Below, one piece after another: positions 2,570 to 24,916 of a stretch of 64,000 bases of DNA. Position 1 is the stretch's first letter. Each line of letters starts with the position of its first letter. This stretch comes from Candidatus Undinarchaeales archaeon (lineage in GTDB: Archaea; SpSt-1190; JASMDC01). The stretch covers positions 1-64,000 of the forward strand of contig JASMDC010000009.1 of the NCBI GenBank assembly GCA_030753015.1, in the 5' to 3' direction. The notes under the pieces were generated by a model. The model worked only from the letters and a program-made list of their open reading frames with translations. It was not told the DNA's origin and made no database searches. The translations under genes were made by a program, and so were the position numbers.

Positions 2570-2640
2570 TAATCCTGCACACGCCGTTTGAGCGCGATAA
2601 CACTCTCACTATCCATAGGATGTATTCAGACTAAGGGAAG

Positions 2641-2665: not shown

Positions 2666-2680
2666 TGCTCTATCGACTCT

Positions 2681-3136: not shown

Positions 3137-3226
3137 TCGTAAGCACCGTAGCAGACTGTAGCCGGTATGGTTTTAAAAATTGTTCCCACAGCGCCGCTGC
3201 TCGGATCCCCGCAACCGCCCGACAGA

Positions 3227-3233
3227 TTTAAAA
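3227..3233 (+). promoter_or_regulatory. Archaeal TATA box for mvk (probably leaderless transcript)
   Basis: TTTAAAA ending 24 bp upstream of ATG 3257. Confidence 0.55.
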
Positions 3234-3256
3234 CGTCTATTAAGGTACCCGCGCCC

Positions 3257-4279: not shown

Positions 4280-4305
4280 GGATCGGGACTGCGGACCACA
4301 ACCCT

Positions 4306-4345
4306 GTGAACTACCCCTCTCGGAAGGGGACTTCCCGCCGAAATA
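4306..4345 (-). mobile_element. 40-bp IS200/IS605 mini-element (PATE-like)
   Basis: Minus strand reads TTTAT|TATTTCGGCGGGAAGTCCCCTTCCGAGAGGGGTAGTTCAC: same flanking TTTAT, GGGAAG-hairpin and TAGTTCAC terminus as the tnpB element at 26265-27612. Confidence 0.75.
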
Positions 4346-4387
4346 ATAAAGAGTTAAAGAACTCACCGTCGTACGGAGCGTGTAGCC

Positions 4388-6243: not shown

Positions 6244-6533
6244 CCCTCACCTGGATCGAGAAGCGAGAGATGGGCGACGACCTTCTGCTCCTGCTCGGGG
6301 GCGGTGCGACCCACATAGGGTGCGTGGCCGTGTGCGAGCCGGGCGAGGAGCCACGGACCATCTCTCTCGTGGGCCATAAGGAGGATGTGGTCGCCGCGCC
6401 TCTGGCACAGGCCGTCGCGTCGCGCACGGGACGCCGGGTGGCGGTCGTGGCGGGCATCCACTACGACGAGATAACCACTGAGCAGATCCAGCAGGTCATC
6501 GACGAGTGCAAAGAGTACGAGGTGGGCGCATGA
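6240..6533 (+). CDS. lpdD: LpdD-like prenylated-flavin chaperone
   Basis: MGDDLLLLLGGG.THIG, GHKE, VAVVAGIH motifs typical of the LpdD-like family; ATGA overlaps at both ends inside a ubiX-ubiD operon. Confidence 0.75.
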   Translation: MTLTWIEKREMGDDLLLLLGGGATHIGCVAVCEPGEEPRTISLVGHKEDVVAAPLAQAVASRTGRRVAVVAGIHYDEITTEQIQQVIDECKEYEVGA

Positions 6534-7735
6534 AGCTGACAGACGAGGAGCAGGAGATGCTCGACGGCGAGCAGGGCCCCGGAGTACAGAAGGCAATAGA
6601 GATCGTTGTGGCCCTTGGGACCATCTACGGAGCGGAGCAGCTGGTTCCTGTGTCCAGCGTCCAAGTGTCCGGGGTCTCTTACAAGAACCTCGGCGAGGCG
6701 GGGATCGAGTTCCTCACGGAGTGGGCGGATGCCGGTGCTCGTGTACGGGTGCCCACCACGCTAAACCCCGCGGGCATGGACCTTTTGCGATGGGAGGAGA
6801 TCGGCTTCCCTGAGGACTTCGCACGACGCCAGCAAGAGGTCATCGCGGCCTTCGTCCGCATGGCCATCGAGCCCACCTGTACGTGCACTCCCTACTTGAC
6901 CGGAAATCTCCCCGCGTTCGGTGACCACATAGCCTGGGGGGAGAGCTCGGCCGTGTCTTACGCCAACTCGGTCATCGGTGCCCGGACGAACCGCGAGGGT
7001 GGTCCCTCGGCACTGGCCGCTGCCATATCCGGTAGGACGGCCGTCTTCGGGCTCCACCTGGACAGGAACAGGATGGCCACGCACCGCATCGACGTAGCCT
7101 GTCCCGTTGAGAGCGTGGCCGACTTCGGGGCGCTGGGGTGCATGGTGGGCCGCATTGTCAAGAACCGTGTGCCGTACTTCGTGGGGATTCAATCCAAGGG
7201 AATGGAGGTGCTCAAGGCACTGGGGGCCGCCATGGCAGCCACCGGTGCAGTGGGGCTCTACCACATCGAGGACGTCACTCCAGAGGCCCGCCTCGGCGAC
7301 ATGCAGGGTGACAAAATCGAAGCAGTGACAATCGAGTCACTTGACGAGGGCTATGAAGGCCTGAACGGCGATGACAATACCGTGGACTTCGTGAGCGTCG
7401 GCTGCCCTCATGCTTCGCTTGCAGAAGTGCAAAAGGTGGTCGACCTCATCGGCGAACGCGAGCTCACAGCGACCTTATGGGTAACTACATCGCGCCAGGT
7501 ACGTGCCGAGGCCGAGCGCTTGGGGCTCGTTGCTCGCATCGAGGCCACCGGAGGTCATGTGGTCAGCGACACCTGCCTTGTGGTCGCTCCGGTCGAGCAC
7601 TTCGGCTTCAAGACCCTGGCCACGAACTCTGGGAAGGGGGCCACCTATGCGCCGGGCCACTGTGGGCTCAACGTCCGCTATGGTTCTCTAGAACAGTGCA
7701 TCGAGGCAGCGGTCAACGGGAGGTGGGACGCGTGA
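6530..7735 (+). CDS. Phosphomevalonate dehydratase large subunit (aconitase X catalytic subunit)
   Basis: SGVSYKNLG, TTLNPAGMD, CTCTPY, WGESSA, NREGG, GCPH, DTCLV. Confidence 0.93.
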   Translation: MKLTDEEQEMLDGEQGPGVQKAIEIVVALGTIYGAEQLVPVSSVQVSGVSYKNLGEAGIEFLTEWADAGARVRVPTTLNPAGMDLLRWEEIGFPEDFARRQQEVIAAFVRMAIEPTCTCTPYLTGNLPAFGDHIAWGESSAVSYANSVIGARTNREGGPSALAAAISGRTAVFGLHLDRNRMATHRIDVACPVESVADFGALGCMVGRIVKNRVPYFVGIQSKGMEVLKALGAAMAATGAVGLYHIEDVTPEARLGDMQGDKIEAVTIESLDEGYEGLNGDDNTVDFVSVGCPHASLAEVQKVVDLIGERELTATLWVTTSRQVRAEAERLGLVARIEATGGHVVSDTCLVVAPVEHFGFKTLATNSGKGATYAPGHCGLNVRYGSLEQCIEAAVNGRWDA

Positions 7736-8127
7736 AAGCACGGATCATCAAGGATGGGCGTGCGGAAGGCAAGGCGCTCGTCTCAAGTGAGCCCATCGGG
7801 TTCTTCGGTAACGTGGACCCGGATACGGGCGTGGTCGTGGAGAAGGGACACGAGCTCGAGGGCCAGTGCATCACGGACACAGTGCTCGTGTTCTCCACGG
7901 GCAAGGGGAGCACCGTCGGTTCCTACACCATCTACCGCCTCAAGAAGAACGGTAAAGCGCCAGCGGCCATCATCTGTGCCGAGAGCGAGCCTATCGTGGC
8001 CGTGGGTGCCATCATCGCCGATATCCCCATGGTGGACCGCGTGGACATCTCCGACATCCGCACCGGCGACTACGTCACCGTCGACGGCGACGAGGTGACC
8101 ATCGGGGCCGTGGGATTAAGCCGTTAA
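7732..8127 (+). CDS. Phosphomevalonate dehydratase small subunit (AcnX swivel domain, DUF126)
   Basis: GTGA overlap; GRAEGKALVS, VDPDTG, GKGSTVGSY, APAAII, IPMVD. Confidence 0.93.
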   Translation: MKARIIKDGRAEGKALVSSEPIGFFGNVDPDTGVVVEKGHELEGQCITDTVLVFSTGKGSTVGSYTIYRLKKNGKAPAAIICAESEPIVAVGAIIADIPMVDRVDISDIRTGDYVTVDGDEVTIGAVGLSR

Positions 8128-8166: not shown

Positions 8167-9330
8167 ATGCCCTCTGCTATCTGTCCAGTCTGTCGTGAGG
8201 TCCATGACATCGGTCCTGAAGGTGTTTGTCCCCACTGTGGGGGCGAGCTAGAATCCTTTGCCAACAGTGATGCCTATCTCAAGGAGATGGCGCCAAAGAT
8301 CGTTGAGGAACGCAAGGTCGCAGGGATTGAGGGGCTCGTGGGCGGACTTGAGGCCGTCATAATCAACACGGAGCAGGACCACCAACGCGCCGCCGTAAAA
8401 GGTCTCCTGCGGACAACGGGACACAGTTTCGCCGGAGCCTTCCTGGACCATAGTCTCCGGACCGTCGTACTCTCCCACAAAAGCTCGGCGGATATCCTGG
8501 TAAGGTCACGGCAGGGAGGGGGCGGCCCATTCACAGCCTACAACGGCGCACTAAAGACACGTCATCTACCCTCGACGAGACTGGAGACATTCGTGTTCCG
8601 GTGCCGCGACCTCGAGCGGTACGTCGGGATACAGCGGGAACGTGGTGTACAGTTCGTTCAAGAGGACTTAGTACACACCGGGACACACTCATTCATCCAG
8701 ACCGTACCGTCCACCTTTACAGGCAACTCCATCGGTTTCGTGGAGTGGCACAGCCCGGCGCGTGAATGGCGACCGGACGGTAGCGATGAGCTCGACTGGG
8801 CCCACGAGAAACCGGACGCACCCCATCTGGCGAACATCGGCATGCTCGACCACACAGCCACGCGGGTGCGGGCACGAGACCGGGACGCAGCGATCATCGA
8901 GTTCATGCATCTTACCGACTACACCTTCCAGTTCGCTGTCTACGTAAAACACCTCAACTCCATCACCAACGTGGCCCGGCTCTTGCCTGATGACTTTGCG
9001 ATGGTGTTCACCTCGGGCATCTCACCCTTCTCGGATGACCATCCGTCCGGACCCACGGAGGGATTCATCAAGAACTATGGGACCCGGGTGCATCACATGG
9101 CCTTTGCGACCGAGCGGATCGAGAACACCTTCGACGCGTTGAAGGCCGACGGCATGGGCTTCCTCCTCGAGCTCGTCGGCTCGCCGGACGAGGGATTGAA
9201 GCAGACGTTCTCCGAGGCATCGCCCGACACCTTGCTGGTCAACGAGTACATCCACCGCTATGGTGACTTCGACGGGTTCTTTTCAAAGAGCAACGTGGGA
9301 CTGCTCACCGCGGCGACGGCCAAACAGTAA
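8167..9330 (+). CDS. VOC/HPPD-like metalloenzyme with N-terminal Zn ribbon
   Basis: CPVC..CPHC at the N-terminus; LDHTA, VHHMAF and NEYIHRYGDFDGFF resemble the 2-His-1-Glu triad region of 4-hydroxyphenylpyruvate dioxygenase-like proteins. Confidence 0.7.
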   Translation: MPSAICPVCREVHDIGPEGVCPHCGGELESFANSDAYLKEMAPKIVEERKVAGIEGLVGGLEAVIINTEQDHQRAAVKGLLRTTGHSFAGAFLDHSLRTVVLSHKSSADILVRSRQGGGGPFTAYNGALKTRHLPSTRLETFVFRCRDLERYVGIQRERGVQFVQEDLVHTGTHSFIQTVPSTFTGNSIGFVEWHSPAREWRPDGSDELDWAHEKPDAPHLANIGMLDHTATRVRARDRDAAIIEFMHLTDYTFQFAVYVKHLNSITNVARLLPDDFAMVFTSGISPFSDDHPSGPTEGFIKNYGTRVHHMAFATERIENTFDALKADGMGFLLELVGSPDEGLKQTFSEASPDTLLVNEYIHRYGDFDGFFSKSNVGLLTAATAKQ

Positions 9331-10380
9331 CTACGTCCGCTGCTCGAGCCACTCCCGGGTCCGTCCCGTGAGAACCAGCGGTCGGTCCATCAGCTCCACC
9401 CGGGAGGACGCCCCGCACAGGAGCATGGCCGCTCGTGTCTCGGCGATGAGCGTTGTCAGGTAACTGCGAGCGCCGTCCACGCCACCGTCCATGTACGCGC
9501 GGAGCACGGGCAGCGCTACGCCGACAGCCGTTGCACCCAAGCGCAGCGACTTAATCACATCGATGCCTGTGCGGACGCCTCCGGTGGCGATGACCGGTAG
9601 GTCGCAGGCCGAGCGCACCTCGGCGACGCTGATGGGCGTGGGTAGGCCCCAACGCCAGAACGTCTCGGCCAGGCGGTTGCCCGTGTCGCGATAGTGCTCG
9701 ACGGCCACCCACGAGGTGCCGCCGACCCCGCCAACGTCGATACCGGCCACACCGGCCTCGGCGAGCCTTGCGGCGGTCTCGCGGGATATCCCGCACCCGG
9801 TCTCTTTAGCGACCACGGGGACTTCAAGATCGGTGCACAACCGTGCCAGCGCGGCCTCGCCGCCCTTGAACGCACGGTCCCCTTCGGGCTGTGTCATCTC
9901 GTGGGCAGGGTTGAGGTGAACGCAAAGCGCGTCGGCGCCTATCCCCTCGACGGCCTTCAGGGCCTCTTTGGCGCCCCAGCCAGCCACGAACTGCACGAGT
10001 CCCAGGTTCCCCAGGAGGAGGATGTCCGGAGCGACGTCCCTGACCTCGAAGGTCCGGGTGGTGTCCGGCTGCTCCACCATGATGCGCTGGCTCCCGAGCC
10101 CCATACCGAGTCCCAGCTCCTGGGCGAGTGCTGCCAGATCACGGTTGATCCGTCGTGCCTCATCGGTCCCGCCGGTCATGGCGGCGATGATGATGGGGGT
10201 GGACAACCGCCGCCCATAGAGCTCCACGGAGCAGTCCACGTTATCGGCGTCCACGTCCGTGAGCGCATCGTGGACTAGGGATATGTCGGCCCATGGATCG
10301 TACCCAGCCTCCACGTCCTCCTTCCAGCACACGCGGATATGGTCCGCCTTCCTCTGCTCGATGATAGTGGGTTCGCTCAT
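9331..10380 (-). CDS. fni: Type 2 isopentenyl-diphosphate delta-isomerase
   Basis: RKADHI, AMTGG, GSQR, HLNPAHE..QPEGD, KETGCG, GGVGGTSW..VE, ATGGVR. Confidence 0.97.
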   Translation of the reverse strand: MSEPTIIEQRKADHIRVCWKEDVEAGYDPWADISLVHDALTDVDADNVDCSVELYGRRLSTPIIIAAMTGGTDEARRINRDLAALAQELGLGMGLGSQRIMVEQPDTTRTFEVRDVAPDILLLGNLGLVQFVAGWGAKEALKAVEGIGADALCVHLNPAHEMTQPEGDRAFKGGEAALARLCTDLEVPVVAKETGCGISRETAARLAEAGVAGIDVGGVGGTSWVAVEHYRDTGNRLAETFWRWGLPTPISVAEVRSACDLPVIATGGVRTGIDVIKSLRLGATAVGVALPVLRAYMDGGVDGARSYLTTLIAETRAAMLLCGASSRVELMDRPLVLTGRTREWLEQRT

Positions 10381-11162
10381 GTGATCACCGGTATGAATGT
10401 TCCTTCGTCGGTGGACCCGCCGAGGGCCCGTTCCAGCGCGCCGGGGGTGTTCGCGTCGATGACCAGCGACTCTACCCCGACCCGTGCCAGTGGGAGCAGC
10501 TCGTCCAGCTTGCCACGCATGCCACCCGTGACGTCGGACGCTGCCGAGCCACCAGCCTCCACAAGGGCCAATGTCTCAGGGGTGAGGATGTCGATGCGAC
10601 GGGCACCCGGGTCCGTGCGTGGGTCAGTGGTGTACACGCCGTCCACGTCGGAGCATAGCACCGCTCGCCCGATGCCGAGGTTGGGTGCGAGGTACGCCAG
10701 CAGCTGGTCACCTGACACGATGGCGAAGCCCTGTGCACGGTCCTGGACGACGTCACCGAAGAGCACAGGTGTCATCCCTCCCTCGACCAGGAAGCGAACG
10801 GGTTCCTCATCGAAAGCTACTATTCGCCCGTTCTCGAGTGTGCACACAGCAGCCGGGGGGACCGCAACGGCAGGGATGCCTGCGTTCAGGAGCCCATCCA
10901 TTACAGCTGCGTTCAGACGTTCCATAGCACGGTGTATGTTGGAGAACGCCTCGCGGGCCTTCGGCCCGTCCAGTGCTCCACTGATCATGCCGTGTTCGGT
11001 CGCAGCAGCGTGCCCGAAGGAGCCGCCACCATGGACCACGAGGCACTGCTCTCCGGACCTGGCGAGTTCCTGGGCGAGCCGGGCGATGACGTCCTCACGA
11101 GCGATGTAAGCTATGTCCTTAGGGGCGATGGCCGAGCCACCCAACTTGACGGCGTACTTCAC
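10377..11162 (-). CDS. ipk: Isopentenyl phosphate kinase
   Basis: KLGGSAI..K, VHGGGSFGH, PVLFGDVV, IVSGD, DVDGVY..DP, DVTGGMRGK; overlaps fni. Confidence 0.95.
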   Translation of the reverse strand: MKYAVKLGGSAIAPKDIAYIAREDVIARLAQELARSGEQCLVVHGGGSFGHAAATEHGMISGALDGPKAREAFSNIHRAMERLNAAVMDGLLNAGIPAVAVPPAAVCTLENGRIVAFDEEPVRFLVEGGMTPVLFGDVVQDRAQGFAIVSGDQLLAYLAPNLGIGRAVLCSDVDGVYTTDPRTDPGARRIDILTPETLALVEAGGSAASDVTGGMRGKLDELLPLARVGVESLVIDANTPGALERALGGSTDEGTFIPVIT

Positions 11163-11734
11163 GCTCGAACCCCCAGGAAGCTCTTGATGTCGCTGAGCGT
11201 CTGCTGGGCGAGCTGGAGCCTGAAGGTCTTTCGCTCCCCCCAGTCGCGGGCCTCGATGACAGCGATATCGGTGTGGATGTTGCGGGTCAGGGCGGTCAGC
11301 CGCTCCAATTGCTCACGCAGAGCGCCCTGTCCTGGATCGTGGACAATCTCCAGGTCCGAGAGCCTCGTTCGTGATGTGCGCAACGAACGGCGGAGCTCGT
11401 CCAGATGCTCCCGGTCTTTGCTGAGCTGGATAAGGATGGACGTCTCCTTGTCAGGCATTTCCTCTGTACCGGTCTCACGCAGTGAGCGGAGCACCTCGTT
11501 CGTCTGTTCCATGCGTTCGCGGCTCTTCCGCTCCTGGCCGGACCGGACATCGATCTCCCGGCGGAGATGCTTCATCTCCCTTTCGAGTGAGCGGAGCCGG
11601 TTCCGCAAATGCTCTGCTTCCTTGATGACGATGTGACATTCGTCGCACGACGACGAGAGGGCGTCCCAGGCTACCTGGGCGGGATCCCCTGGATGGTCGC
11701 GGTCCTCGGTGGACGGGCCGTCCGATACGGCCAT
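11159..11734 (-). CDS. Hypothetical coiled-coil protein
   Basis: Charged heptad-like sequence; stop overlaps the ipk GTG start. Confidence 0.7.
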   Translation of the reverse strand: MAVSDGPSTEDRDHPGDPAQVAWDALSSSCDECHIVIKEAEHLRNRLRSLEREMKHLRREIDVRSGQERKSRERMEQTNEVLRSLRETGTEEMPDKETSILIQLSKDREHLDELRRSLRTSRTRLSDLEIVHDPGQGALREQLERLTALTRNIHTDIAVIEARDWGERKTFRLQLAQQTLSDIKSFLGVRA

Positions 11735-11735
11735 C

Positions 11736-11990
11736 TCACTGTCCCCCTTCGCGCCCGATGTTGAGCTCGACCTTCTTCAGCTCCCCGAGCATGCCGAACA
11801 CGATGACCACGATAAGGATCGTGAAGGGCTCCACGGCCATCGACAGGCCCTTGCCTCCGGCTATATCCTGTATAGCTAGTTCGCGGATGATGAACACGGC
11901 AAAGATCAAGGTCACCGCGATGAGGAAGAGGAACATGATGGACCGGCCGCCGTGCTTGACGACTGCGCCGTTAGCCTTTCCTGACGTCAT
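11736..11990 (-). CDS. Small two-TM membrane protein
   Basis: Two hydrophobic helices; tightly packed in the operon. Confidence 0.75.
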   Translation of the reverse strand: MTSGKANGAVVKHGGRSIMFLFLIAVTLIFAVFIIRELAIQDIAGGKGLSMAVEPFTILIVVIVFGMLGELKKVELNIGREGGQ

Positions 11991-13227
11991 CTAGGATCAC
12001 CCCCATGTCGGCGCGGAAGTTCTCGATGGCATCACCCAGCTCATCGGCCTCGGCAGCTTCCCGGGCGAGCCTTAGTAGGAGGAGCCGGGAGAGCGGTCGC
12101 GCACCGTCCGCAACCGTCACCTTGCCCTCGGATAGCTCGGAGAAGAGGTCGTCGCGGAACCAGTGGAGGGCACCGGTCTCATCGACGAGCCGCTCCCTGA
12201 ACCGTGAGAAGAACTGGTAGTAATTACGTCCCGTGGCAGCGTTGAGCAGCCTGGACATATCATTGAGCCCCGTCTCGAGGCCGGCCAGCGCCAGCACGAT
12301 GCAGGGCACCCGGCTGGGTACCGAGAGCGCCTCGGCCATCAGCTGACCGGAGAGCCGGACCTCTTGTCGAGCAACCTTCTGTGATCCGAACCGGGTGCGC
12401 ATGTAGGCCAGCCGCCGCTCGTCCCGGGCGCGGGCCAGCTCCCGGACTGCCTCGGTGATCTCCTCTCTAGATGGAGCACGACCGGTATCTAGCTGGACCA
12501 AACGTGAAGCTATATCCGAGGTGGGACCCCGCAACCGGCTGCGCTGCCAAGCAACGTCCTCCACGGCGGTGATGGACTCGATACCCTCTGAAGTGGCGCC
12601 CGCGGCCGTCCCCAGTCGCACGAGGACGGCGAGCTCGATGGCCACGTACAAGGCCAATGCTAGGAACCATACGATCATCACGAAGAGGCCAAGGTCCCCG
12701 ATCTGCACAACGGCCAGCTTCCACGCGGTCTCGGTCATGGGCCCTATCTCCATGATCGGTGTAAGGACGCACGCAAGCGTGGCGACAACATGTGGCAGGG
12801 TGACCCCGAGGTACATATCGTCGCGCTCGTCCTCCTCCAGACGGAGGGCGATGTCCAGATTATCGACATAGCGGATGGTGGACAGGGCGGCGTGAGCTGC
12901 CAGCAGGAAGCAGAGGAAGAACCCGAAGAATGACCGGTCGGCGAAGAGCCCGACGAAGGAGAGCAGGCCCACGATAACGTAGAATAGCAGGCTATTGTGC
13001 CCCTCCTCGACCAGGAAGCGGCCCTTGTCCTCGAAGAGGGCGGTGAGGAACCAGGGAACGATGAGCAGGCCCAGTATGCCCCCGCGGAGGGCCGCCAGCA
13101 GGCCCGTGAGCGCCATGGTCCCCTCGGCGAAATCGTGGAGATGGTGCAGGTTGAGAAGGAGGAACGCGGCCGCGCATTGGAGCGTGAGGATCCATAGGGA
13201 GCGCCGCCTAAGGATAAGACCCCTCAT
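11971..13227 (-). CDS. Six-TM membrane protein with C-terminal winged-helix-like domain (putative membrane-tethered regulator)
   Basis: Six hydrophobic helices after basic MRGLILRRR. C-terminal ALSVPSRVPCIVLALAG..GLNDMSRLL..FFSRFRERLVDETGAL..VTVADGARPL resembles ArsR/MarR-type wHTH by eye. The CDS is solid; the wHTH call is tentative. Confidence 0.55.
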   Translation of the reverse strand: MRGLILRRRSLWILTLQCAAAFLLLNLHHLHDFAEGTMALTGLLAALRGGILGLLIVPWFLTALFEDKGRFLVEEGHNSLLFYVIVGLLSFVGLFADRSFFGFFLCFLLAAHAALSTIRYVDNLDIALRLEEDERDDMYLGVTLPHVVATLACVLTPIMEIGPMTETAWKLAVVQIGDLGLFVMIVWFLALALYVAIELAVLVRLGTAAGATSEGIESITAVEDVAWQRSRLRGPTSDIASRLVQLDTGRAPSREEITEAVRELARARDERRLAYMRTRFGSQKVARQEVRLSGQLMAEALSVPSRVPCIVLALAGLETGLNDMSRLLNAATGRNYYQFFSRFRERLVDETGALHWFRDDLFSELSEGKVTVADGARPLSRLLLLRLAREAAEADELGDAIENFRADMGVILDDVRKG

Positions 13228-13247
13228 AACAAGGGCAGCACTAGCAA

Positions 13248-13257
13248 CTAATTTAAT
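13248..13257. promoter_or_regulatory. AT-rich box in a 54-bp divergent intergenic gap (candidate shared TATA)
   Basis: CTAATTTAAT lies about 20-30 bp from both ATG 13227 (minus) and ATG 13282 (plus). Confidence 0.5.
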
Positions 13258-13281
13258 GATGACGTGCCCGTTCTTCCTATC

Positions 13282-13533
13282 ATGACCGTAGATGTGGGCG
13301 CCGCTCTCATCATCGAACGCGGTCTCATCGTCCTTGCTTTCCCTGCGGCCCTCCTCCTCCTTCTGGTGTTGCTCGTGCTAACGATGCCCCCGGCCAATCC
13401 ATCGGGTTCAGGCTGGTCCCAGCAGCAATCCGTCCAGCCCACCCCTGCTCCGCAGGCACAGTCCTATTCCTATCCGCAGCAGGGCTACGGTTATTACTCC
13501 GGAGGTGGTCAGAACGGTGGATACCAGCGATAA
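13282..13533 (+). CDS. Small single-TM protein with Q/Y/G-rich tail
   Basis: TM LIVLAFPAALLLLLVLLVLTM, then low-complexity QSYSYPQQGYGYYSGGGQNGGYQR; overlaps the protease gene. Confidence 0.65.
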   Translation: MTVDVGAALIIERGLIVLAFPAALLLLLVLLVLTMPPANPSGSGWSQQQSVQPTPAPQAQSYSYPQQGYGYYSGGGQNGGYQR

Positions 13534-14533
13534 GGATGAACCCGTCACCAAGAAGGATGACGCTCGGGCACGGCCTGAAGAAAAGAAGACGACCGCGGAC
13601 CAGGAAGATGCTCGTACACGAGACATCCCACCCGCTCCTCGCCAACGCGACATACCGATGACCTGGGAAGAGCGCCAGAACCGGGCACAGATGTTGCTCA
13701 TCATACTCTTCCTCATCGTCCAGATATGCGGTGTGGCCATAGCCTACGCAGTGACCCAGAGCCCATCGATCCAATTGCACCTCGAGCAGACCCGCCCCGC
13801 TTTCATCAGTCCCGACAAGGGCCAGGAGAACACCGTGAACATCGTGGCCATCGGTATCATCGGGACGGTGTTCCTCATCCTCCTCAAGAAGTACCTGCGG
13901 TTCAAGGTCCGGTACGTGGTCATCGTTGCGGTCTTCGGCTCATGCACCTATCTGGCCGACATCCTGGGCTTCAGTGCTCTGGTCTCCACTTTGTTCGGTA
14001 TCGTGGTCACTGTTCTTCGGGAACGCATGGAAAACCTACATATCCTCAACGCATCGGTGTTCGTATCAGTGCTCGGTTTCGGTGCCATCTTCGGCCATTG
14101 GGTGGTTCCCGAGCATGCCGTGCTCCTCCTCATCGTGCTCTCCATCTACGACATCATCGGAGTGCTCATCACCCAGCACATCACCTATCTGTGGTTCGGT
14201 GCCTACAAGTTCGAGAAGATGTGGCGTGATGTCCTGGCCTTCGTCGTGCACGTAGACGAGTCCGAGGTCATACTCGTGGGCGCGGGCGACTTCGGATTTC
14301 CCATGCTCTTCACCTTCTCCGTGACAGAGTTCCTCGTCCAGACCCAGAGCAAGGCGTTCGGGCTGGTCGGTGGGACCATGGTGGCCATCAGCGCCACGCT
14401 GGGCTTCGCCGCCCTGCAGATCTACGCCATGCGCTCCGAACGGAGCAAGGACACCGGCCTCCCGGGGCTCCCGTTCGTAACCGGCGGTGCTATCGCTGGA
14501 TGGCTGCTGGCCCGGCTCGTGCTCGGCGTATAG
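13517..14533 (+). CDS. Presenilin/signal peptide peptidase-like intramembrane aspartyl protease (A22)
   Basis: YD motif (LSIYDIIGV), GxGD (VGAGDFGFP), PAL-like LPGLPF, about 9 TMs; GGAGGTGG RBS before GTG 13517. Confidence 0.88.
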   Translation: MDTSDKDEPVTKKDDARARPEEKKTTADQEDARTRDIPPAPRQRDIPMTWEERQNRAQMLLIILFLIVQICGVAIAYAVTQSPSIQLHLEQTRPAFISPDKGQENTVNIVAIGIIGTVFLILLKKYLRFKVRYVVIVAVFGSCTYLADILGFSALVSTLFGIVVTVLRERMENLHILNASVFVSVLGFGAIFGHWVVPEHAVLLLIVLSIYDIIGVLITQHITYLWFGAYKFEKMWRDVLAFVVHVDESEVILVGAGDFGFPMLFTFSVTEFLVQTQSKAFGLVGGTMVAISATLGFAALQIYAMRSERSKDTGLPGLPFVTGGAIAGWLLARLVLGV

Positions 14534-14588
14534 GGCCGTACCGGCCGAGGCGTTTCTCATTTAAAGTATCACGGTCGGATTGGGTCCG

Positions 14589-15740
14589 ATGGACCAAGGA
14601 GCCTATCCGCAACCTCAGCCCCAAGCTCAATATATCCCGCCGGTCTCGTCGCATCCACCCGAGGTGTCCGCAGCGCCTCCAAAGGAGCACGAGCGGAAGG
14701 ATGGGTTCATCGACAAGCATCTCCCCAAGATCATCGCCGTCCTGCTCTCCATCGCCACCATCTTCTCCGGCGTCGTATCCAACCGGTCGGACCTTCTGGA
14801 GGAGCAGGCCAACGAGATGAAGATCGCGATAGACACGCTCGAGCGCACCGCCAAGGCCGAGGAGACGGCTGCCCGGCAGTACGCATCGTCAATCGACAGC
14901 TATGAGAACCAGGTCGTGCTCCTCGGTATCGAGAACGGGAATATCGAGACGCTCAAGAAAGGATACGAGACGGACATCGGGGGTATCACGACCCGGTACA
15001 ACGAGGAGCTCGAGCAGGTGAACCAGAGCTATGTCACCAAGCTCGCGAACGAGACCGAGACGCTAGCGAAGATCGAGAAGATGGCCGAGACCGCCAAGAA
15101 GCAGGTCAGCACACAGACCCAGAAGGTCAAAAAGACCGTGGAGGACCTTCTTGGCGTCGGAGCGGGCGGCGGGCGAGGGGCTGTCAAGGAGACCCTGGGC
15201 GAGCCGGTCACCATGGAGGCCTTCCTCAAGGTCACTCGCGAGGAGAACGTACTCGACGAGTACAAGGACAAGCAGATCGACCTCCGCCAGGAGACAATCC
15301 GCAAGCGGGAGGAGATCAGGGAGCTCGAGGACGAGCAGCGGTACTCGCTCCGCGAGGTGGAGCGAGAGCGCGATGCCGAGATCATGGAGAAGCGCATCCA
15401 GCAGAAGCGGCTGGATGACGACATAACCATGAACAACGCCCAGATCGCGGAGATCAACAAGCTCATCAACAAGTACCAGGGGATGGACGTCGAATCCACT
15501 CAGAAATCAGAGGCATCCTACACGCAGACCAATGAGAAGGTCCAGGAGGTCGAGGGATTGCGGGAGAAGGCCGACCGTCTGATGCGAGTGCCCATCATCC
15601 TCAACCTCGCACTGTTCCTGTTCGGTTTCGCGGGCAACTCGGACAAGAAGTTCTTCAAGATCGTGTTCACCATAATCGGTATACTGGCCCTGGGTTTCTC
15701 AGGGTTCTACTTCCTGCGCATCATGAGGGTGCCGGTCTGA
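14589..15740 (+). CDS. Membrane protein: one TM, long coiled coil, two C-terminal TMs
   Basis: Pro/Gln-rich N-terminus, TM at IIAVLLSIATIFSGVV, about 270 aa charged helical region, two terminal hydrophobic helices. Confidence 0.8.
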   Translation: MDQGAYPQPQPQAQYIPPVSSHPPEVSAAPPKEHERKDGFIDKHLPKIIAVLLSIATIFSGVVSNRSDLLEEQANEMKIAIDTLERTAKAEETAARQYASSIDSYENQVVLLGIENGNIETLKKGYETDIGGITTRYNEELEQVNQSYVTKLANETETLAKIEKMAETAKKQVSTQTQKVKKTVEDLLGVGAGGGRGAVKETLGEPVTMEAFLKVTREENVLDEYKDKQIDLRQETIRKREEIRELEDEQRYSLREVERERDAEIMEKRIQQKRLDDDITMNNAQIAEINKLINKYQGMDVESTQKSEASYTQTNEKVQEVEGLREKADRLMRVPIILNLALFLFGFAGNSDKKFFKIVFTIIGILALGFSGFYFLRIMRVPV

Positions 15741-15816
15741 TCACGGCGGGAACGACCGGGGCGGGCCGCAGCACCCCACCCCTACATTTATCTCTCTTTA
15801 GGGCCCGTACAGAACC

Positions 15817-16461
15817 GTGGACCTCGCAGCCCTCCCGGCCGCTTTGTACACGATAGTGCTCGCCCTTGCTGCCGGTCAGGACCTGCGCACCGGTGAGATC
15901 GAAGAGCGTTTGCTCCGCGGGCTCGTGCTCGCGGGGGTCGCGGGCGCACTTGTCCACTCCTGGGACAGGACCGCGGTCCAGGTCCCCCTGCTGGTGGGCG
16001 TCGTTGCGCTCCTCCTCAACCGCGGTGGCTGGATGGGTGGGGCCGACCTTACGGCCCTGGTCGCCCTCGCTGTCGCGGCACCGGCCCATCCCATCCCCGG
16101 ATACAGCACTCCTCTGCCGTTCCCCGTGAGCGTGTTCCTGCTGGCACTGCTGCTGGCCACGGGATGGCTGGCCGTGCGGGGGACGACGGGCGTGCTCCGG
16201 TCGGGGCGATGGCAGCGGGCGGTCGCCATCACCGTGGGCGTGGCCGTGGTGCTGTGGTCCTCCTACGGCTCATGGGACCTGCTACTGCTGCTGGACCTGC
16301 TGCTGCTGGCGCTGCTCGTCCAGTACCTGGGGCGACTGGCGGAGCATGGCGGCGCACCGGACCCCTGGTCCGAGGTCAGGTTTTTACCGGTGGTACTAGT
16401 ATCGCTCCTGCTCCACCTGGCCAGCGGTGATCCTCTCGGCTGGTTTTTCGGTGTGATATGA
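15817..16461 (+). CDS. Prepilin/prearchaellin peptidase (A24, FlaK/PibD-like)
   Basis: Catalytic Asp motifs QDLRTGEI and WMGGADL, PFPVSVF, C-terminal FLPVV..GD. Confidence 0.8.
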   Translation: MDLAALPAALYTIVLALAAGQDLRTGEIEERLLRGLVLAGVAGALVHSWDRTAVQVPLLVGVVALLLNRGGWMGGADLTALVALAVAAPAHPIPGYSTPLPFPVSVFLLALLLATGWLAVRGTTGVLRSGRWQRAVAITVGVAVVLWSSYGSWDLLLLLDLLLLALLVQYLGRLAEHGGAPDPWSEVRFLPVVLVSLLLHLASGDPLGWFFGVI

Positions 16462-16477
16462 GCCGGTAGCGGACCCG

Positions 16478-17017
16478 TTACTCCTCTCGCAGTACCTTCT
16501 TCGGAGGTCGAGCGTACGTTGCCGCGAACGCGATGACCATGATGATAATGAGCGGAAGATATGCTACCTTTGAACCGGACGCGGGTGGGACCTCCGTCAC
16601 GGTCACAATGGGACCTTCACTCACCCGGGTCTGTGGGTGGTCCAGCACGGCGCCCAGATAGTACCATTCCCACAGGCGGACACCGCTAAAGCAGGCAGAG
16701 CGTTCCGACGGTGGTAGGTGGGGACAGAGCGCGAGGGTATAGGTATAGTTGAACTCGGAGAGCCTCTTGAAGCAGTACCCCTTCTGAGTGATGGTGAAGT
16801 ACGCCGGACCTTTCACAGGGTCGATGTCAAAGGGACCGTCCTCGGTGAGGGTGATGTTCGAGGGGATCTTGACGGACAGCGGGCTGTCGGGAGGGAATTC
16901 CCGACACGTCCGCAACGTATCATTGTACTGCGAATCGTAATAACCCACTGCTAGGCAGAGGGAGGACAAGATGAGTACCAACGAGATGAGGGTCGCATAC
17001 CACATCACTTGTTTCAT
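16478..17017 (-). CDS. Secreted, C-terminally anchored hypothetical protein
   Basis: N-terminal signal peptide and C-terminal TM followed by basic residues. Confidence 0.7.
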   Translation of the reverse strand: MKQVMWYATLISLVLILSSLCLAVGYYDSQYNDTLRTCREFPPDSPLSVKIPSNITLTEDGPFDIDPVKGPAYFTITQKGYCFKRLSEFNYTYTLALCPHLPPSERSACFSGVRLWEWYYLGAVLDHPQTRVSEGPIVTVTEVPPASGSKVAYLPLIIIMVIAFAATYARPPKKVLREE

Positions 17018-17087
17018 GGTGCAGGATTGGTATCGCGGATTTCCTATTAATACTTGACACCCGTCCTACTCCTGGGGGGGGCCCATA

Positions 17088-19850: not shown

Positions 19851-19852
19851 CT

Positions 19853-21181: not shown

Positions 21182-21288
21182 GATAAAGGGAATACACTTC
21201 TGAAGTAATAAAGCTCTTCTTTCCAAGGTCCCACTTCGGCGCCACCTTTCACAAACACGTTTAAGGTTATTTGACCCTCTTCATCCCG

Positions 21289-22419
21289 ATGGGCAAGTTC
21301 ATGAACTGTCTGACCATCGGTATCGGGCAGGCAGGGAACCTTGCCGTCAACAACCTCTACTCTTCGGGTGCATCCTCGGACGTGGAGGCGACGGTGAAGA
21401 AGGTCACCGGCGAGCGCTGGGACTACTTCCGCCCCATCCTCGTCAACACCGATGAGACAGACCTGGCCCAGGCCAAGAACATCAGCAAGAACAACAAGAT
21501 ACACGTCTCCGCTCACGGTGCTGGTGGTAAGTTCGAGTGGGGTGTGCGCATCGCTCGGGCCCACGAGGACATACTCTTCCAGCGCATCAGGGCGCTCACC
21601 GTCGAGCAGGGATTCAAGCCCAACTTCGTGTTCCTCATACACTCCCTGGGCGGTGGGACCGGTAGCGGGTTCACACCGATCATCGCCGAGATCGCCGAGC
21701 GCATCCGGTACGAGGCAGGGATGGGGGAGAACGAGTTCTCCATCGTGGACGTGCCCTTCCTCCCATTCCGCTACCAGAAGGGCGATATCGAGGACAACAT
21801 CATCCATTGCCTCAACGAGATGCTCCGCAAGGTCGATGGTGTGCTCATGGTCGACCTGGAGCACTTCTACGATCGTATCCCGCCCCAGTTCAAGCACGAT
21901 CCCAACAATCCGCTCACCGTGGACAAGCTTCTCGAGGCCGTGGACATGGACGCCATGATGGCCATCCGTCTGCTCACCGTGTTCGGCTCGGGGACATCCA
22001 GCGTAATCGAGGGACAGGTGGCGGACGTGGCCGACATCAAGGCCACCATCTCCTCGGGCGCATTCTCCGTCATCGGCGTGAACAGGACCCCTGTGGACGA
22101 CAAGGGCAACCCCTCGGTGGGCATCCCTCACCTGGTGCGCGCCACCATGGTGGAGAAGATGAGCGCCGCCTCGGACTTCAAGAAGGCAAACGGTGCCCTC
22201 CTTCTCATCAAGGGACCCAAGGCGCCCTCCATCAAGGATATGCGTACCGCCATAGACATCATCCACCAGGAGATCGGTGAGAAGACCGTCCGCGAAGCCT
22301 ATGCCATCATCCCTAACGCGGACAAGTACGAAGTGGTGCTGATCCTGGCCGGTGTGACGCTCACCCGTCTTGAGAAGATCCTCGACGATGTCGAGGAGCG
22401 TAAACAGGGGGGTAGTTGA
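21289..22419 (+). CDS. Tubulin/FtsZ-superfamily GTPase (CetZ/FtsZ3-like)
   Basis: GIGQAGN, LVNTD, GAGG, signature HSLGGGTGSG, T7-like DVADI; no FtsZ C-terminal tail; TTTAAG at 21260-21265 upstream. Confidence 0.9.
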   Translation: MGKFMNCLTIGIGQAGNLAVNNLYSSGASSDVEATVKKVTGERWDYFRPILVNTDETDLAQAKNISKNNKIHVSAHGAGGKFEWGVRIARAHEDILFQRIRALTVEQGFKPNFVFLIHSLGGGTGSGFTPIIAEIAERIRYEAGMGENEFSIVDVPFLPFRYQKGDIEDNIIHCLNEMLRKVDGVLMVDLEHFYDRIPPQFKHDPNNPLTVDKLLEAVDMDAMMAIRLLTVFGSGTSSVIEGQVADVADIKATISSGAFSVIGVNRTPVDDKGNPSVGIPHLVRATMVEKMSAASDFKKANGALLLIKGPKAPSIKDMRTAIDIIHQEIGEKTVREAYAIIPNADKYEVVLILAGVTLTRLEKILDDVEERKQGGS

Positions 22420-23697
22420 GTGTTCGACGTGAACCTGGGCGGGATCGATCCCCTGCTGCTCATCCCCGTCGTCACCCTCTCCCTCGCGCTCATCGGTTAC
22501 GTGCTCGTCAAGCTGTTCGGTGGGAAGAAGCCCGCGGTGGGCTCGCAGAGCGCTCCGTCAGGTATCCAGGCATCGGAGCTAATCGACTCCTGGGGCACTA
22601 CAACAGCACCGGACAACGTATACCAAGCGACCGCTCCTGATGAGATCACGGGGAAGAAGGCGGACTTCGGTGACAAGACCCGCCTCAAGCGCGCGCTTCT
22701 CGGACCGCTGGCCGTGATGCTGTACGACCTGCTCTCCAAGGACTTCCTGCGCAGCTACCATAACAAGGTCGAGGTCGGGTACACCAAGGTCTACCCTGGC
22801 GAGAAGGAGATCGAGGTCGTCCCGCCCCGCTTCATCGGCGAGGACTTCCTGATCTTCGCGGTGGTGGGCGGCATTATCGTGTGCGCATTGGCGCTGGGCA
22901 TGGGCTATATGTTCCAGGGCGGGATGCTGGCCATGGGCTTCGCTGCTCTGGTCGGTTTCGGTTTCGGTTTCACCATGGTGTTCCTCATGCCCATCTTCAC
23001 CTTCGAGAGGCGCAAGGACGAGATCGAGGCCCACCTCCCTGACGTGCTCGAGCAGCTGTCGACCATGTCCGGGATGAAGAACATGGACGAGATCATACGG
23101 TACCTCGCCGAGACCCGACTGGGGGCCGTGTCCGAGGAGTTCGCCATCGGAAACCATATCCTCCGCCGCAACCTCAACCTCAACCTCGCTCTCGACCGCA
23201 TACGTGAGCGCTCCGAGTCCAAGACCGTGGGGCGTGTGCTCAACCTCCTCAACGAGGGGGCCAGACGCGGAGTGGACGTCTCCGACGCGGCCAAGAAGAT
23301 GGCCGAGAGCATGCGCAACAAGCATATGATCCTCCGTGAGCGCTCAGCATCACTCTCACTACAGCGCTATACACTGCTGACGGCAGCGGCCATCCTTGTG
23401 CCCCTTATCCTCGGCATCGTGTGGGGCATCTCCCAGTCCCTCTCGGGATTCGGCAGTGGCGATGCCCTGGCGGGCTCGGGTATCAAGTTCGATCCGAAGA
23501 AGGCAGAGCTGGTGCTCATGACCGTGCGTCAGGTGTTCGGTATCTATGTGGTGATCCATGCTGTCGAGGCGTCGTTCTCGGTAGCACGACAGGAGGGCGA
23601 TGTGAAGCGGGCGGTAATCTATCTGGCGCCCCTGGCCGCGATCTCGTACCTCGTGTTCGACAATGTATGCGATCTGGCCGCGACCATGTTCGTGTGA
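22420..23697 (+). CDS. Type II secretion system F-family / archaeal pilus platform protein (PilC/TadC-like)
   Basis: RKDEIEAHLPDVLEQLS, LGAVSEEF, ALDRIRERSES..VGRVL..L.EG.RRG; TM pattern; starts immediately after the tubulin-family stop. Confidence 0.88.
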   Translation: MFDVNLGGIDPLLLIPVVTLSLALIGYVLVKLFGGKKPAVGSQSAPSGIQASELIDSWGTTTAPDNVYQATAPDEITGKKADFGDKTRLKRALLGPLAVMLYDLLSKDFLRSYHNKVEVGYTKVYPGEKEIEVVPPRFIGEDFLIFAVVGGIIVCALALGMGYMFQGGMLAMGFAALVGFGFGFTMVFLMPIFTFERRKDEIEAHLPDVLEQLSTMSGMKNMDEIIRYLAETRLGAVSEEFAIGNHILRRNLNLNLALDRIRERSESKTVGRVLNLLNEGARRGVDVSDAAKKMAESMRNKHMILRERSASLSLQRYTLLTAAAILVPLILGIVWGISQSLSGFGSGDALAGSGIKFDPKKAELVLMTVRQVFGIYVVIHAVEASFSVARQEGDVKRAVIYLAPLAAISYLVFDNVCDLAATMFV

Positions 23698-23749
23698 ACC
23701 GGGGCCCGACCCACGGTTTTATATGCTCTAGCCGCTATATCAATCCTTG

Positions 23750-24916
23750 ATGGCGATGGAGCTCTCCACGCCAGCCCTGCTCGTGCTGGCCGTCACGCCT
23801 GGCCTCTATCTCCTCTGGTACTTTTACAAGAAGGACGAGTATGAGCCCGAGCCCATGAGCCTGGTCATGAAGACCTTCGTGGCAGGTGCCGTGATGGTGT
23901 TCCCCGCCGCCCTGCTCGAATCATGGCTCATGGTGGGACCATTCCTGATCACCGAGGAGGCCGGATGGTGGTTCGTGTTCATCGCCTCATTCTTCATAAT
24001 CGGGCCCGTGGAGGAGTACTTCAAGCTCCGGGCCGTGATGAAGAACGCTTTCGACTCGCCGGAGTTCAACGAGCCAATGGACGGCATCGTGTACTGCTCC
24101 GCGGCCTCTCTGGGTTTCGCCAGCTTGGAGAACATCTTCTACGTCGTGGGCACAGGGGATGCTCTTGTGGGCATTGCCCGGGCCGTGCTCTCGGTCCCGG
24201 GTCACGCCTTCATGGGAGTGCTCATGGGGTACTGGGTCGGCAAGGCAAAGATGGAGCCCGAGAACAAGGACAAGTACATCACGATCGGTTTCCTGCTCGC
24301 GACCGTGCTCCACGGCCTCTATGACTTCCTCATCCTTTCTGGGCCCAATCCCCTGTTACTCATGTTCTTCCTCTACCTCTTCATGGGCACCCTGATCAAG
24401 CAGGGCAAGCAGGCCATCCAGGAGCACAGTGGCAACTCGCCCTTCCGGGCAGAGCTCGGCATCGGTGAGGAGGAGAATGTGCCGAGGGTGACCGACCGAC
24501 AGGCTAGCTACGAGTCCTGGCAGGAGTCGGTGAAGCCTCGCCCTGCCCGTAGGTCGGTCCCGCGCCCCGCAGCGGTCCGTGCCACCGGCCCGGCCCTCGA
24601 TGAGTGGGGTGATCCCCGGTTCTGCACCACCTGCGGACAGAACATCGAAGGCGAACGCGAGTATGTGGTGTGTGACGAGTGCGGGACCGCAGTGTGCGAG
24701 CAATGCGCAATTCTCGCTGATGACAGGGACCTGTGCCAGGCCTGCGCCAACGAGCCCGCGAACTGCGGTCAGTGCCGACGCGATATCCGGAACGACCGCG
24801 AGTACGCGGTCTGCGACTGGTGTTCAAAGTCCTTATGCACTAAATGCGCCGTCTCGGACGGCCACACTGAGCTGTGCCGTGACTGTGCTGGCTCCCTCGG
24901 GTTCGCAGCGGGATAG
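23750..24916 (+). CDS. prsW: PrsW-family intramembrane metalloprotease with two C-terminal 8-Cys Zn fingers
   Basis: DEYEPEP, PVEEYFK, DGIVY, LGFASLEN, HAF, HGLYD; two C-x2-C-x12-C-x2-C-x4-C-x2-C-x9-C-x2-C units. Confidence 0.92.
   Translation: MAMELSTPALLVLAVTPGLYLLWYFYKKDEYEPEPMSLVMKTFVAGAVMVFPAALLESWLMVGPFLITEEAGWWFVFIASFFIIGPVEEYFKLRAVMKNAFDSPEFNEPMDGIVYCSAASLGFASLENIFYVVGTGDALVGIARAVLSVPGHAFMGVLMGYWVGKAKMEPENKDKYITIGFLLATVLHGLYDFLILSGPNPLLLMFFLYLFMGTLIKQGKQAIQEHSGNSPFRAELGIGEEENVPRVTDRQASYESWQESVKPRPARRSVPRPAAVRATGPALDEWGDPRFCTTCGQNIEGEREYVVCDECGTAVCEQCAILADDRDLCQACANEPANCGQCRRDIRNDREYAVCDWCSKSLCTKCAVSDGHTELCRDCAGSLGFAAG

Follow-up and report, generated by a model that had tools for sequence, protein, structure and literature searches.

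In a 64,000-nt stretch of DNA (here, the window) from a marine archaeon, one locus may carry a lineage-restricted membrane module centred on the sole presenilin-type protease of the organism. We tentatively propose that a six-transmembrane (6-TM) protein encoded next to the enzyme is its dedicated partner or client; no transcription-factor circuit could be demonstrated. As listed in Table 1, five minus-strand ORFs, encoding the 6-TM protein, a 2-TM protein, a coiled-coil-like protein, Ipk and Fni, overlap or abut one another (overlaps of 4, 4, and 20 nt and a single gap of 1 nt), and the genes for a small TM protein and a presenilin/SPP homologue lie opposite across a gap of 54 bp. The ORF coordinates, together with family matches and dN/dS values, bore out the five tightly packed genes of the original prediction.

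Table 1. Features of the locus and its downstream region, with positions in the window.
Feature	Position	Strand	Evidence and remarks
fni, type 2 isopentenyl-diphosphate isomerase	9331..10380	-	TIGR02151, 381.9 bits (cut-off, 281.3); dN/dS 0.059; last gene of the operon
ipk, isopentenyl phosphate kinase	10377..11162	-	NF040647, 222.8 bits (cut-off, 120); dN/dS 0.096; 4-nt overlap with each neighbour
191-aa soluble coiled-coil-like protein, no family	11159..11734	-	without hydrophobic segment; 93% identity in sister species; dN/dS 0.085
84-aa two-TM protein, no family match	11736..11990	-	two hydrophobic segments; dN/dS 0.074; first 20 nt shared with the 3' end of the 6-TM gene
418-aa orphan, six TM helices (aa 10-205, N-in/C-in) and 213-aa cytoplasmic helical domain	11971..13227	-	hydropathy, loop charges; dN/dS 0.068
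Most conserved part of the cytoplasmic domain (~aa 291-386), with three helices spaced as in an HTH (putative)	12070..12357	-	dense invariant alignment columns
Divergent promoter region (putative), one AT-rich box at ~13249-13257	13228..13281	.	box at distances of 26 nt and 29 nt to the two start codons
83-aa single-TM protein, Q/G/Y/S/P-rich tail	13282..13533	+	hydropathy; end overlaps the protease gene; dN/dS 0.195
Divergent presenilin/SPP-type (A22) intramembrane aspartyl protease, 342 aa	13505..14533	+	PF06550, 48.7 bits (cut-off, 23.9), profile positions 3-283 of 283
386-aa membrane protein, no family; one N-terminal TM, long charged helical stretch, two C-terminal TMs	14580..15740	+	hydropathy; 88% identity in sister species
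214-aa A24-like (prepilin-peptidase type) polytopic aspartyl peptidase	15817..16461	+	PF01478, 31 bits (cut-off, 26.5); dN/dS 0.21
CetZ-like tubulin, 425-aa membrane protein, PrsW-family protease	21271..24916	+	PF00091, 81 bits, and PF21011; PF13367, 122 bits

Both ipk and fni, essential genes for lipid precursors, passed the cut-offs of their equivalog families, and searches of the organism's own genome returned one match for ipk, which is single copy, and one above-cut-off match for fni, which is the sole full copy. The 191-aa protein gave weak, sub-threshold matches only, to the coiled-coil arms of SMC/Rad50, and no Pfam or NCBIfam family was found for the 6-TM protein. In comparison with the sister species, all ORFs of the locus exhibit dN/dS values of 0.06 to 0.21 at a pS of 0.28 to 0.37, indicating that they are real genes under purifying selection, and the values for the three orphan genes of the operon (0.06 to 0.09) are as low as those for ipk and fni. 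Two RNA libraries yielded contigs of ≥99% identity, possibly including DNA carry-over, that cover fni, ipk, the coiled-coil gene, the junction of the 2-TM and 6-TM genes, and the 3' part of the 6-TM gene. None of these contigs mapped to the protease side, which is no proof of silence.

Counting boundary residues, we found ~13 K+R in the N-terminus, loops 2-3 and 4-5, and the C-side of the 418-aa protein, versus 1 in the other three loops, and the same loop sets of a 34%-identical homologue hold ~12 versus 1. By the positive-inside rule in these two homologues, the 213-aa C-terminal domain is cytoplasmic, in agreement with the location predicted earlier from six TMs and a basic N-terminus. Hydropathy and loop charges also give the last TM helix a type-I orientation with a short outer loop. 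Since the protein is placed N-in/C-in, this helix would run N-out/C-in, the orientation that is cut by presenilin-type enzymes.

The protease on the other side of the gap is the sole A22 member encoded in the genome (one PF06550 match), and it scores below the cut-off of the archaeal PSH equivalog NF041679 (53.3 versus 125 bits). Its YD and GAGD motifs align with YD162 and GxGD220 of the PSH structure 4hyc and are kept in 4/4 members of a narrow subfamily that comprises four clusters of search matches. Thus, the YD/GxGD/PAL-type protease and single-TM neighbour that had been predicted are present as far as YD, GAGD, the PF06550 match and the single-TM ORF are concerned, but a literal PAL is not; the enzyme has GLPGLPF instead, which falls on the PPL region in an alignment with the archaeal PSH of known structure. 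That PSH is itself without PAL in the excerpted text of PMC2947513. Over its first 67 aa, the neighbouring 83-aa protein has 85% identity to its sister-species counterpart.

The 54-bp gap carries the single AT-rich box that had been predicted for it, and it contains no substitution relative to the sister species: 53 of the 55 aligned columns are identical, and two 1-nt indels were found, versus 79 to 88% identity for three other intergenic regions. No motif common to this gap and the sequences preceding mvk, ubiX, or acnX was found, and genome-wide scans for the flanking half-sites of the gap yielded chance-level matches only, with no shared operator elsewhere.

On the plus strand, the protease heads a longer array of envelope genes and therefore need not be dedicated to its 6-TM neighbour. 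The same array includes the PrsW-family protease (23747-24916) and the 425-aa membrane protein, for which a weak T2SSF match of 22.8 bits lies under the cut-off of 25.2. Gene content near the locus is plastic: two blocks present here are absent from the sister species, in which the CetZ-like, 425-aa and PrsW genes directly follow the A24-like gene.

Among 1.84 billion representatives, the 6-TM family has two relatives only, one at 95% identity in the own genus and the other, P0002, at 34%. P0002 is a singleton on a Logan contig of 8,624 bp, and so is P0016, a relative of the protease at 47% identity. Judged from this equal size, the two probably share one contig, and the tie between the 6-TM protein and the protease is thus probably not unique to the genus. 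No 6-TM partner was seen for P0017, a second out-of-genus relative of the protease on a contig of 3,821 bp. The link of the 6-TM gene to ipk was seen within the genus only, and there was no IPK on an 8,624-bp contig among the 120 matches listed of 4,722. Of the linkage that the original prediction proposed to check in other genomes, the part joining the 6-TM gene to the protease thus probably extends past the genus, and the part joining it to ipk-fni was seen within the genus only. The two families, the 6-TM protein and the protease subfamily, share a matching narrow distribution.

The original prediction had further read a winged-helix pattern in the segment at 12070-12335 of the cytoplasmic domain. 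Helix spacing compatible with an HTH was indeed found there, but the sequence, profile and fold tests gave no statistical or structural support. In searches with the domain, Pfam gave no family at an E value of ≤10, NCBIfam and PDB profiles gave no match, and the organism's own 33,437 ORFs contained no paralogue (best E value, 1.9). The hhalign probabilities against the ArsR/HTH_5, TrmB, and HTH_24 profiles were 2.3%, 0.8%, and 0.3%, respectively, with a thin query profile (Neff, 1.46), whereas these three profiles detect one another at 96 to 98%. The scores were reached by 4/150 column shuffles for ArsR, 16/150 for TrmB, and 33/100 for HTH_24; the ArsR signal, which places aa 297-345 on helices 1 to 3 of that profile, is nominal and is lost after correction for three families, and there is no signal for the core with the other two. 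AlphaFold2 models of the domain were all-helical at a pLDDT of 46 to 49. The model at 49, too low to trust, shows three correctly spaced helices (aa 307-314, 321-332, and 337-347) with no strand and no wing, and ~10 predicted helices in all, far beyond an HTH; a Foldseek search with the domain model returned nothing at an E value of ≤0.001 (best, 1.7). The highest conservation of the domain coincides with putative helices 1 and 3. Together, the Pfam, NCBIfam, PDB, own-proteome, hhalign, AlphaFold2, and Foldseek results gave no support to a wHTH identity of this domain.

For the module that we tentatively favour, a single compact bidirectional promoter would drive two units, one transcript with the 6-TM, 2-TM, and coiled-coil genes and then the single ipk and fni of the cell, and the other with the small single-TM gene and the protease, running on into the envelope gene array. 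The 6-TM protein with its two small partners would be the dedicated partner or client of the protease, which would set the abundance or state of the 6-TM complex; the conserved 213-aa helical domain would serve as the output on the cytoplasmic side, and co-transcription with ipk-fni would tie the level of the complex to isoprenoid-lipid supply. We counted towards the module the narrow 6-TM and protease families, the P0002/P0016 contig, the substitution-free gap, and the overlaps within both units, as well as the low dN/dS, the loop charges, the YD/GxGD alignment, the single PF06550 gene, and the RNA-library contigs. P0017, the plastic surroundings, and the lack of RNA-library contigs on the protease side were counted against it. 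The sole A22 enzyme may also be a housekeeping signal-peptide peptidase, and, to our knowledge, polytopic proteins are not typical substrates of presenilin or SPP.

Gene order could also have arisen without any functional link, the three orphan genes then encoding an unrelated membrane complex that by chance lies between a housekeeping protease and ipk-fni in one narrow lineage. A 6-TM family known from two lineages only, an ipk tie seen within the genus only, the long co-directional array of the protease with the A24-like peptidase, CetZ, and PrsW, and the local insertions or deletions between sister species would all fit such an arrangement. We nevertheless consider it unlikely, given the 4-nt and 20-nt overlaps that chain the genes into one unit, the invariant shared gap, and the probable presence of the protease and the 6-TM protein on one 8.6-kb contig at 34 to 47% identity, a distance at which chance synteny has usually decayed. 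Alternatively, the 6-TM protein could be a transmembrane transcription regulator (TTR) that controls its own divergent promoter while staying in the membrane, with the 2-TM protein as a co-component like ToxS or TcpH and the protease at most as a degradative controller. Such proteins are widespread in archaea, at ~4 per genome, and some are protected from proteolysis by partner proteins, according to excerpts of PMC10269533 and PMC11323476; the small membrane protein translationally coupled to the 6-TM gene through the 20-nt overlap, the HTH-compatible pattern, and the promoter conservation would be in keeping with this. Yet the class, as defined in the excerpted part of PMC10269533, has at least one TM region, of which there are six here, and a recognisable DNA-binding domain, which is absent here. 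The 213-aa domain is much larger than an HTH, and every failed test for a DNA-binding domain listed above counts here too, making this reading distinctly unlikely.

The circuit first predicted, in which a membrane-held winged-helix factor is freed by the presenilin homologue upon a change in membrane state and controls ipk-fni and other mevalonate genes, appears very improbable to us. It faces the missing family, PDB match, and paralogue, the low hhalign probabilities, the wingless model, and the absence of a motif shared with mvk, ubiX, acnX, or other regions, and, in excerpts of PMC10269533, prokaryotic membrane regulators reach DNA without release. These points stand against a cytoplasmic C-terminus, a type-I last helix with a short outer loop, HTH-like spacing with its ArsR alignment, conservation peaking on two putative helices, an invariant promoter, and a protease link probably retained in a distant lineage; moreover, native substrates or partners of archaeal presenilin homologues are given as not known in excerpts of PMC2947513 and PMC9263693. 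The proposed control of mevalonate genes found no support beyond ipk-fni co-transcription in one genus, and no shared operator was found. Equally remote is a reading in which the 6-TM protein provides archaeal presenilin homologues with their first natural client and cleavage of its last, type-I-oriented helix frees the 213-aa domain as a very divergent HTH; that domain would act on the invariant 54-bp bidirectional promoter and would therefore set the level of the cell's single ipk and fni. If true, archaea would have their own counterpart of SREBP signalling, run by an aspartyl protease.

In literature searches, we found no described regulator of the archaeal mevalonate pathway. The locus provides a tangible, low-cost pair for experiments: a divergent presenilin-type protease and, under the same promoter, three membrane proteins that are small or orphan. 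At least one of these, the 6-TM protein, also matches the narrow distribution of the enzyme. If the coupling is real, the archaeal presenilin field would gain a native client, and DNA binding by the cytoplasmic domain would, if confirmed, connect membrane proteolysis in archaea with the supply of lipid precursors; otherwise, this is an ordinary lineage-specific membrane operon.

Among known systems, SREBP-SCAP resembles the locus in idea only, as a membrane-held protein with a cytoplasmic domain near an intramembrane protease and mevalonate-pathway genes. In that system, SREBP, a bHLH-zip factor anchored through a two-helix hairpin, is processed first by a serine protease and next by the metalloprotease S2P, and a sterol-sensing escort takes part. 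The locus has six helices and an aspartyl protease instead, with no escort and no DNA-binding domain that could be recognised, and no part of it is homologous to SREBP-SCAP. PrsW acts as the first-cut enzyme in the RsiW-PrsW-RasP cascade of Bacillus subtilis, and the PrsW-family protease in the array with the intramembrane protease could do likewise; however, the second protease of that cascade is an S2P metalloprotease, its substrate is a single-pass anti-sigma factor, and archaea are without sigma factors. Gamma-secretase consists of presenilin with APH-1, PEN-2, and nicastrin, and here a presenilin-type protease gene likewise lies beside genes for multi-TM, small two-TM, and single-TM proteins, whose sizes and topologies resemble those of APH-1, PEN-2, and a pared-down third subunit. 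No Aph-1 or PEN-2 family match in Pfam was reported for the locus proteins, and archaeal PSH is active alone in vitro in the excerpted text of PMC2947513. As excerpts of PMC10269533 and PMC11323476 describe them, ToxR/ToxS and TcpP/TcpH of Vibrio share with the locus a membrane-anchored protein with cytoplasmic output, an adjacent small membrane partner, and control by proteolysis. In ToxR and TcpP, an OmpR-type DNA-binding domain at the N-terminus is combined with one TM and a periplasmic sensor; the 6-TM protein shows the opposite order, with six TMs, and DNA binding by it is putative. The protease itself resembles the Methanoculleus marisnigri PSH, MCMJR1 (4hyc, 4hyg), in its PF06550 match, its aligned YD and GxGD motifs, and a Pro-containing motif before the last helix instead of PAL (excerpts of PMC2947513), but the match is weak (phmmer E value, 0.019), and the protease here has an extra charged N-terminal stretch of ~55 aa.

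ORF listing and family scans of the stretch, which comes from a metagenome-assembled marine archaeal genome of 3.85 Mb, bore out the gene anatomy of the original prediction: five minus-strand genes, a 54-bp gap, and beyond it a small transmembrane (TM) protein and a protease. Along the minus strand the genes overlap by 4, 4, and 20 nt at three junctions and stand 1 nt apart at the fourth, and thus the five genes form a single tightly packed unit, in which ipk and fni are each the genome's only copy above cut-off in an own-genome search. dN/dS was measured per gene against the corresponding locus of a sister species (L003), whose DNA is 88% identical across 9331-16443 and 85% identical across 2500-8099 (pS, 0.28 to 0.37); gene 14580-15740 was omitted for a 6-nt length difference between the two species. 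The resulting ratios show that the family-less ORFs of the locus are real genes.

Features of the window, with family matches and dN/dS against the sister species
Feature	Position	Strand	Match or remark	dN/dS
mvk, ubiX, UbiD-type decarboxylase, both AcnX subunits	3167-8127	+	upstream of, and converging on, ipk-fni	
387-aa protein	8167-9330		zinc-ribbon-like N-terminal start	
fni	9331-10380	-	TIGR02151, 382 bits	0.059
ipk	10377-11162	-	NF040647, 223 bits	0.096
191-aa soluble coiled-coil-like protein	11159-11734	-		0.085
84-aa two-TM protein	11736-11990	-		0.074
418-aa 6-TM protein	11971-13227	-		0.068
54-bp gap	13228-13281		AT-rich box centred at ~13253	
83-aa single-TM protein	13282-13533		faces minus-strand operon across the gap	0.195
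342-aa presenilin/SPP homologue (protease)	13505-14533	+	PF06550, 48.7 bits (cut-off 23.9); overlaps end of 83-aa gene	0.138
A24-like peptidase			GGAD motif	0.21
Protease-headed array	13505-24916		11.4 kb, one strand	
Block of three genes	16478-21226	-	4.7 kb	
IS605 OrfB/TnpB-type gene	26270-27451		Cas12f-like TNB domain	
Giant ORF, 1,868 aa	36158-41764		FG-GAP repeats	
IS66-family transposase	42170-43681			
Giant ORF, 2,159 aa	57433-63912		no family at E≤1e-5	

Contigs at least 99% alike, from two RNA libraries of separate studies, lie on fni, ipk, and the coiled-coil gene, as well as on the 2-TM/6-TM junction at 11821-12082 and the 6-TM gene toward its 3′ end; such libraries may contain DNA, and a contig spanning two genes does not equal a single transcript. 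No contig from an RNA library lies on the protease side, which does not imply silence. The gene for the 387-aa protein separates that of the AcnX small subunit from fni; the protein has weak glyoxalase/HPPD-like matches, all under cut-offs, and tblastn found no counterpart in the 21-kb L003 locus, where those two neighbours abut.

When the 54-bp gap was aligned with that of the sister species, 53 of 55 columns were identical, with no substitution and two compensating 1-nt indels; three other nearby intergenic regions are 79 to 88% identical. The lone AT-rich box foreseen in the gap was found, its centre lying 26 nt away from the ATG on the minus strand and 29 nt away from that on the plus strand. 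Archaeal TATA boxes obey a placement rule for leaderless transcripts, and these distances would suit one such box serving two leaderless transcripts. Constraint covers the entire gap, beyond the box alone, which fits two interlocked promoters, an operator, or both. The box is flanked by an inverted repeat, GGGCA...TGCCC, which we rejected as a shared operator: GGGCA-N22-30-TGCCC occurs 69 times in the genome versus roughly 100 estimated from base composition, a chance-level count, the scan revealed neither over-representation nor any marking of related genes, and the two other AT-rich instances adjoin unrelated genes.

Hydropathy places the helices of the 6-TM protein at residues ~10-30, 38-64, 79-96, 99-119, 138-160, and 168-205. 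The last hydrophobic stretch is long in this protein and a single helix of 26 to 29 aa in its distant homologue P0002, for which reason six helices were favoured and a seven-helix reading was disfavoured. Lysines and arginines, boundary residues included, number ~13 in the N-terminus, loops 2-3 and 4-5, and the C-side versus 1 in the other three loops, and 12 versus 1 in the same compartments of P0002. By the established positive-inside rule, the protein is predicted to be N-in/C-in with its 213-aa C-terminal domain in the cytoplasm, in agreement with the location first proposed. The cytoplasmic loop between TM4 and TM5 (aa 118-136) is conserved and acidic, and its D-x-x-D and E-R-D motifs do not vary between the two homologues of 34% identity; it could bind a metal or a ligand, but no prenyltransferase family matches it.

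The original prediction had also read a winged helix (wHTH) into the C-terminal domain, and here most sequence, profile, and structure tests argue against a recognisable one. Pfam returned zero families for aa 206-418 at E≤10 and NCBIfam none for the domain; profile searching turned up a single chance match (E 0.42) across all PDB sequences and, across the protein's own genome (33,437 ORFs, all filters off), the protein itself alone, with the next best at E 1.9. Structural modelling of the C-terminus likewise lent the call no support. AlphaFold2 models of the whole protein (pLDDT 45.8) and of the domain (6-row alignment, pLDDT 49.0, ten helices, no strand) were too poor for use, and Foldseek against the PDB listed 107 rows at E≤10, none of them at E≤0.001 and HTH not enriched. 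In the ESM Atlas, the C-terminal part had no usable match, and the TM part scored 0.76 to 0.77, which is chance level.

The conserved core of the domain (aa 290-390), where the winged helix was supposed to lie, was aligned by hhalign with three wHTH profiles built from relatives' genomes, namely, ArsR/HTH_5 (n = 30 sequences), TrmB (n = 30), and HTH_24 (n = 27), with column shuffles as a control; a MarR profile was left out, with just 4 sequences found. The three profiles detect one another at 96 to 98% probability. For the core, the probabilities were 2.3% (ArsR/HTH_5), 0.8% (TrmB), and 0.3% (HTH_24), and the observed scores were reached by 4/150, 16/150, and 33/100 shuffles, respectively. 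The ArsR alignment spans 47 columns in the canonical register of helices 1, 2, and 3, which coincides with three helices of the weak AlphaFold2 model; the HTH_24 alignment puts helix 2 at the same place, and columns that stay the same in both 34%-identical homologues crowd most densely on putative helices 1 and 3. With so thin a query profile (Neff 1.46), the domain could yet be a very divergent HTH, an idea that we consider doubtful rather than far-fetched.

The protease had been assigned to the YD/GxGD/PAL type. Its YD and GAGD motifs indeed line up with the catalytic aspartates in the PSH structure (4hyc), but at the PAL position it has GLPGLPF, which aligns with the PPL region of PSH (PMC2947513). 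It is encoded by the sole PF06550 gene in the genome, so that it may also serve general housekeeping. Downstream follow a gene for a 386-aa three-TM coiled-coil protein and then the A24-like peptidase gene. In the sister species, genes for CetZ, a weak T2SSF-like membrane protein, and a PrsW-family protease come directly after the A24-like gene, which abuts CetZ; in the window genome, a 4.7-kb block absent from the sister species sits between the two. The block encodes three proteins, none matching a family: one of 179 aa with a signal-like start and a C-terminal TM, a multi-TM one of 920 aa, and one of 457 aa. The protease thus stands at the head of an envelope-related array that holds three different polytopic protease families (presenilin/SPP, A24-like, and PrsW) along with the CetZ-like tubulin and the T2SSF-like protein, which makes its dedication to the mevalonate operon less likely. 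The 83-aa protein starts with a 14-aa leader, followed by Arg-Gly and a long hydrophobic run, an arrangement that we take to resemble a class III (type IV pilin-like) signal peptide. Its processing could fall to the A24-like peptidase encoded 2.3 kb downstream and not to the presenilin homologue.

Among 1.84 billion representatives, an exhaustive HMMER search found two relatives of the 6-TM protein, P0001 (95%, own genus) and P0002 (395 aa, 34% identity); a word-based search found its own-genus cluster and nothing else. The family occurs in 2/41 related genomes and 2/17 genomes of the phylum, in its own genus only in both sets. A collection of 185,579 species held one locus, that of the sister species (1 relative among 157 pattern stretches), and two metagenome contig scans held none (0/361 and 0/174 stretches). 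The protease subfamily is as narrow in distribution, with four clusters: two from the genus, P0016 (47% identity), and P0017 (51% over 83%). P0002 and P0016 are both Logan singletons, each on one contig of 8,624 bp, which we take to be one and the same. P0017, on a contig of 3,821 bp, showed no 6-TM partner, which 50%-identity clustering or the short contig could conceal, and among the 120 listed of 4,722 IPK matches none is on a contig 8,624 bp long. The expected linkage therefore held in part: the 6-TM protein and the protease are probably tied past the genus, as P0002 and P0016 each lie on an 8,624-bp contig, but the tie to ipk-fni is documented within the genus only. As for the genomes, G000 and G001 are 3.6 to 3.8 Mb in size (99% complete, 5% contamination) versus 0.6 to 1.2 Mb for the other 15 genomes of the phylum in the collection, and the taxonomic labels read Undinarchaeota on one record and Methanopyri on a protein record; their placement, or the purity of the bins, merits scrutiny.

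Taken together, we tentatively favour a protease-coupled membrane module, a reading that we would not yet call probable. The 6-TM, 2-TM, and coiled-coil proteins would partner the protease or serve as its client, with some cytoplasmic output, the shared promoter would lock their expression to the protease, and co-transcription with ipk-fni would tie it to lipid-precursor supply. Gene order without function is unlikely but a serious contender. A membrane-resident TTR-type regulator acting without release seems improbable to us; TTRs are common in archaea (PMC10269533). The SREBP-like circuit originally envisaged, in which a membrane-tethered wHTH protein and the presenilin-type protease control isoprenoid genes, is very improbable in full, as a recognisable winged helix is disfavoured by most tests and the place of the protease at the head of an envelope array weakens its dedication to the mevalonate operon. 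The module we favour would supply a candidate client for an archaeal presenilin homologue, and since the native substrates of such homologues are still unknown (PMC2947513, PMC9263693), it is worth a bench test even at low odds.
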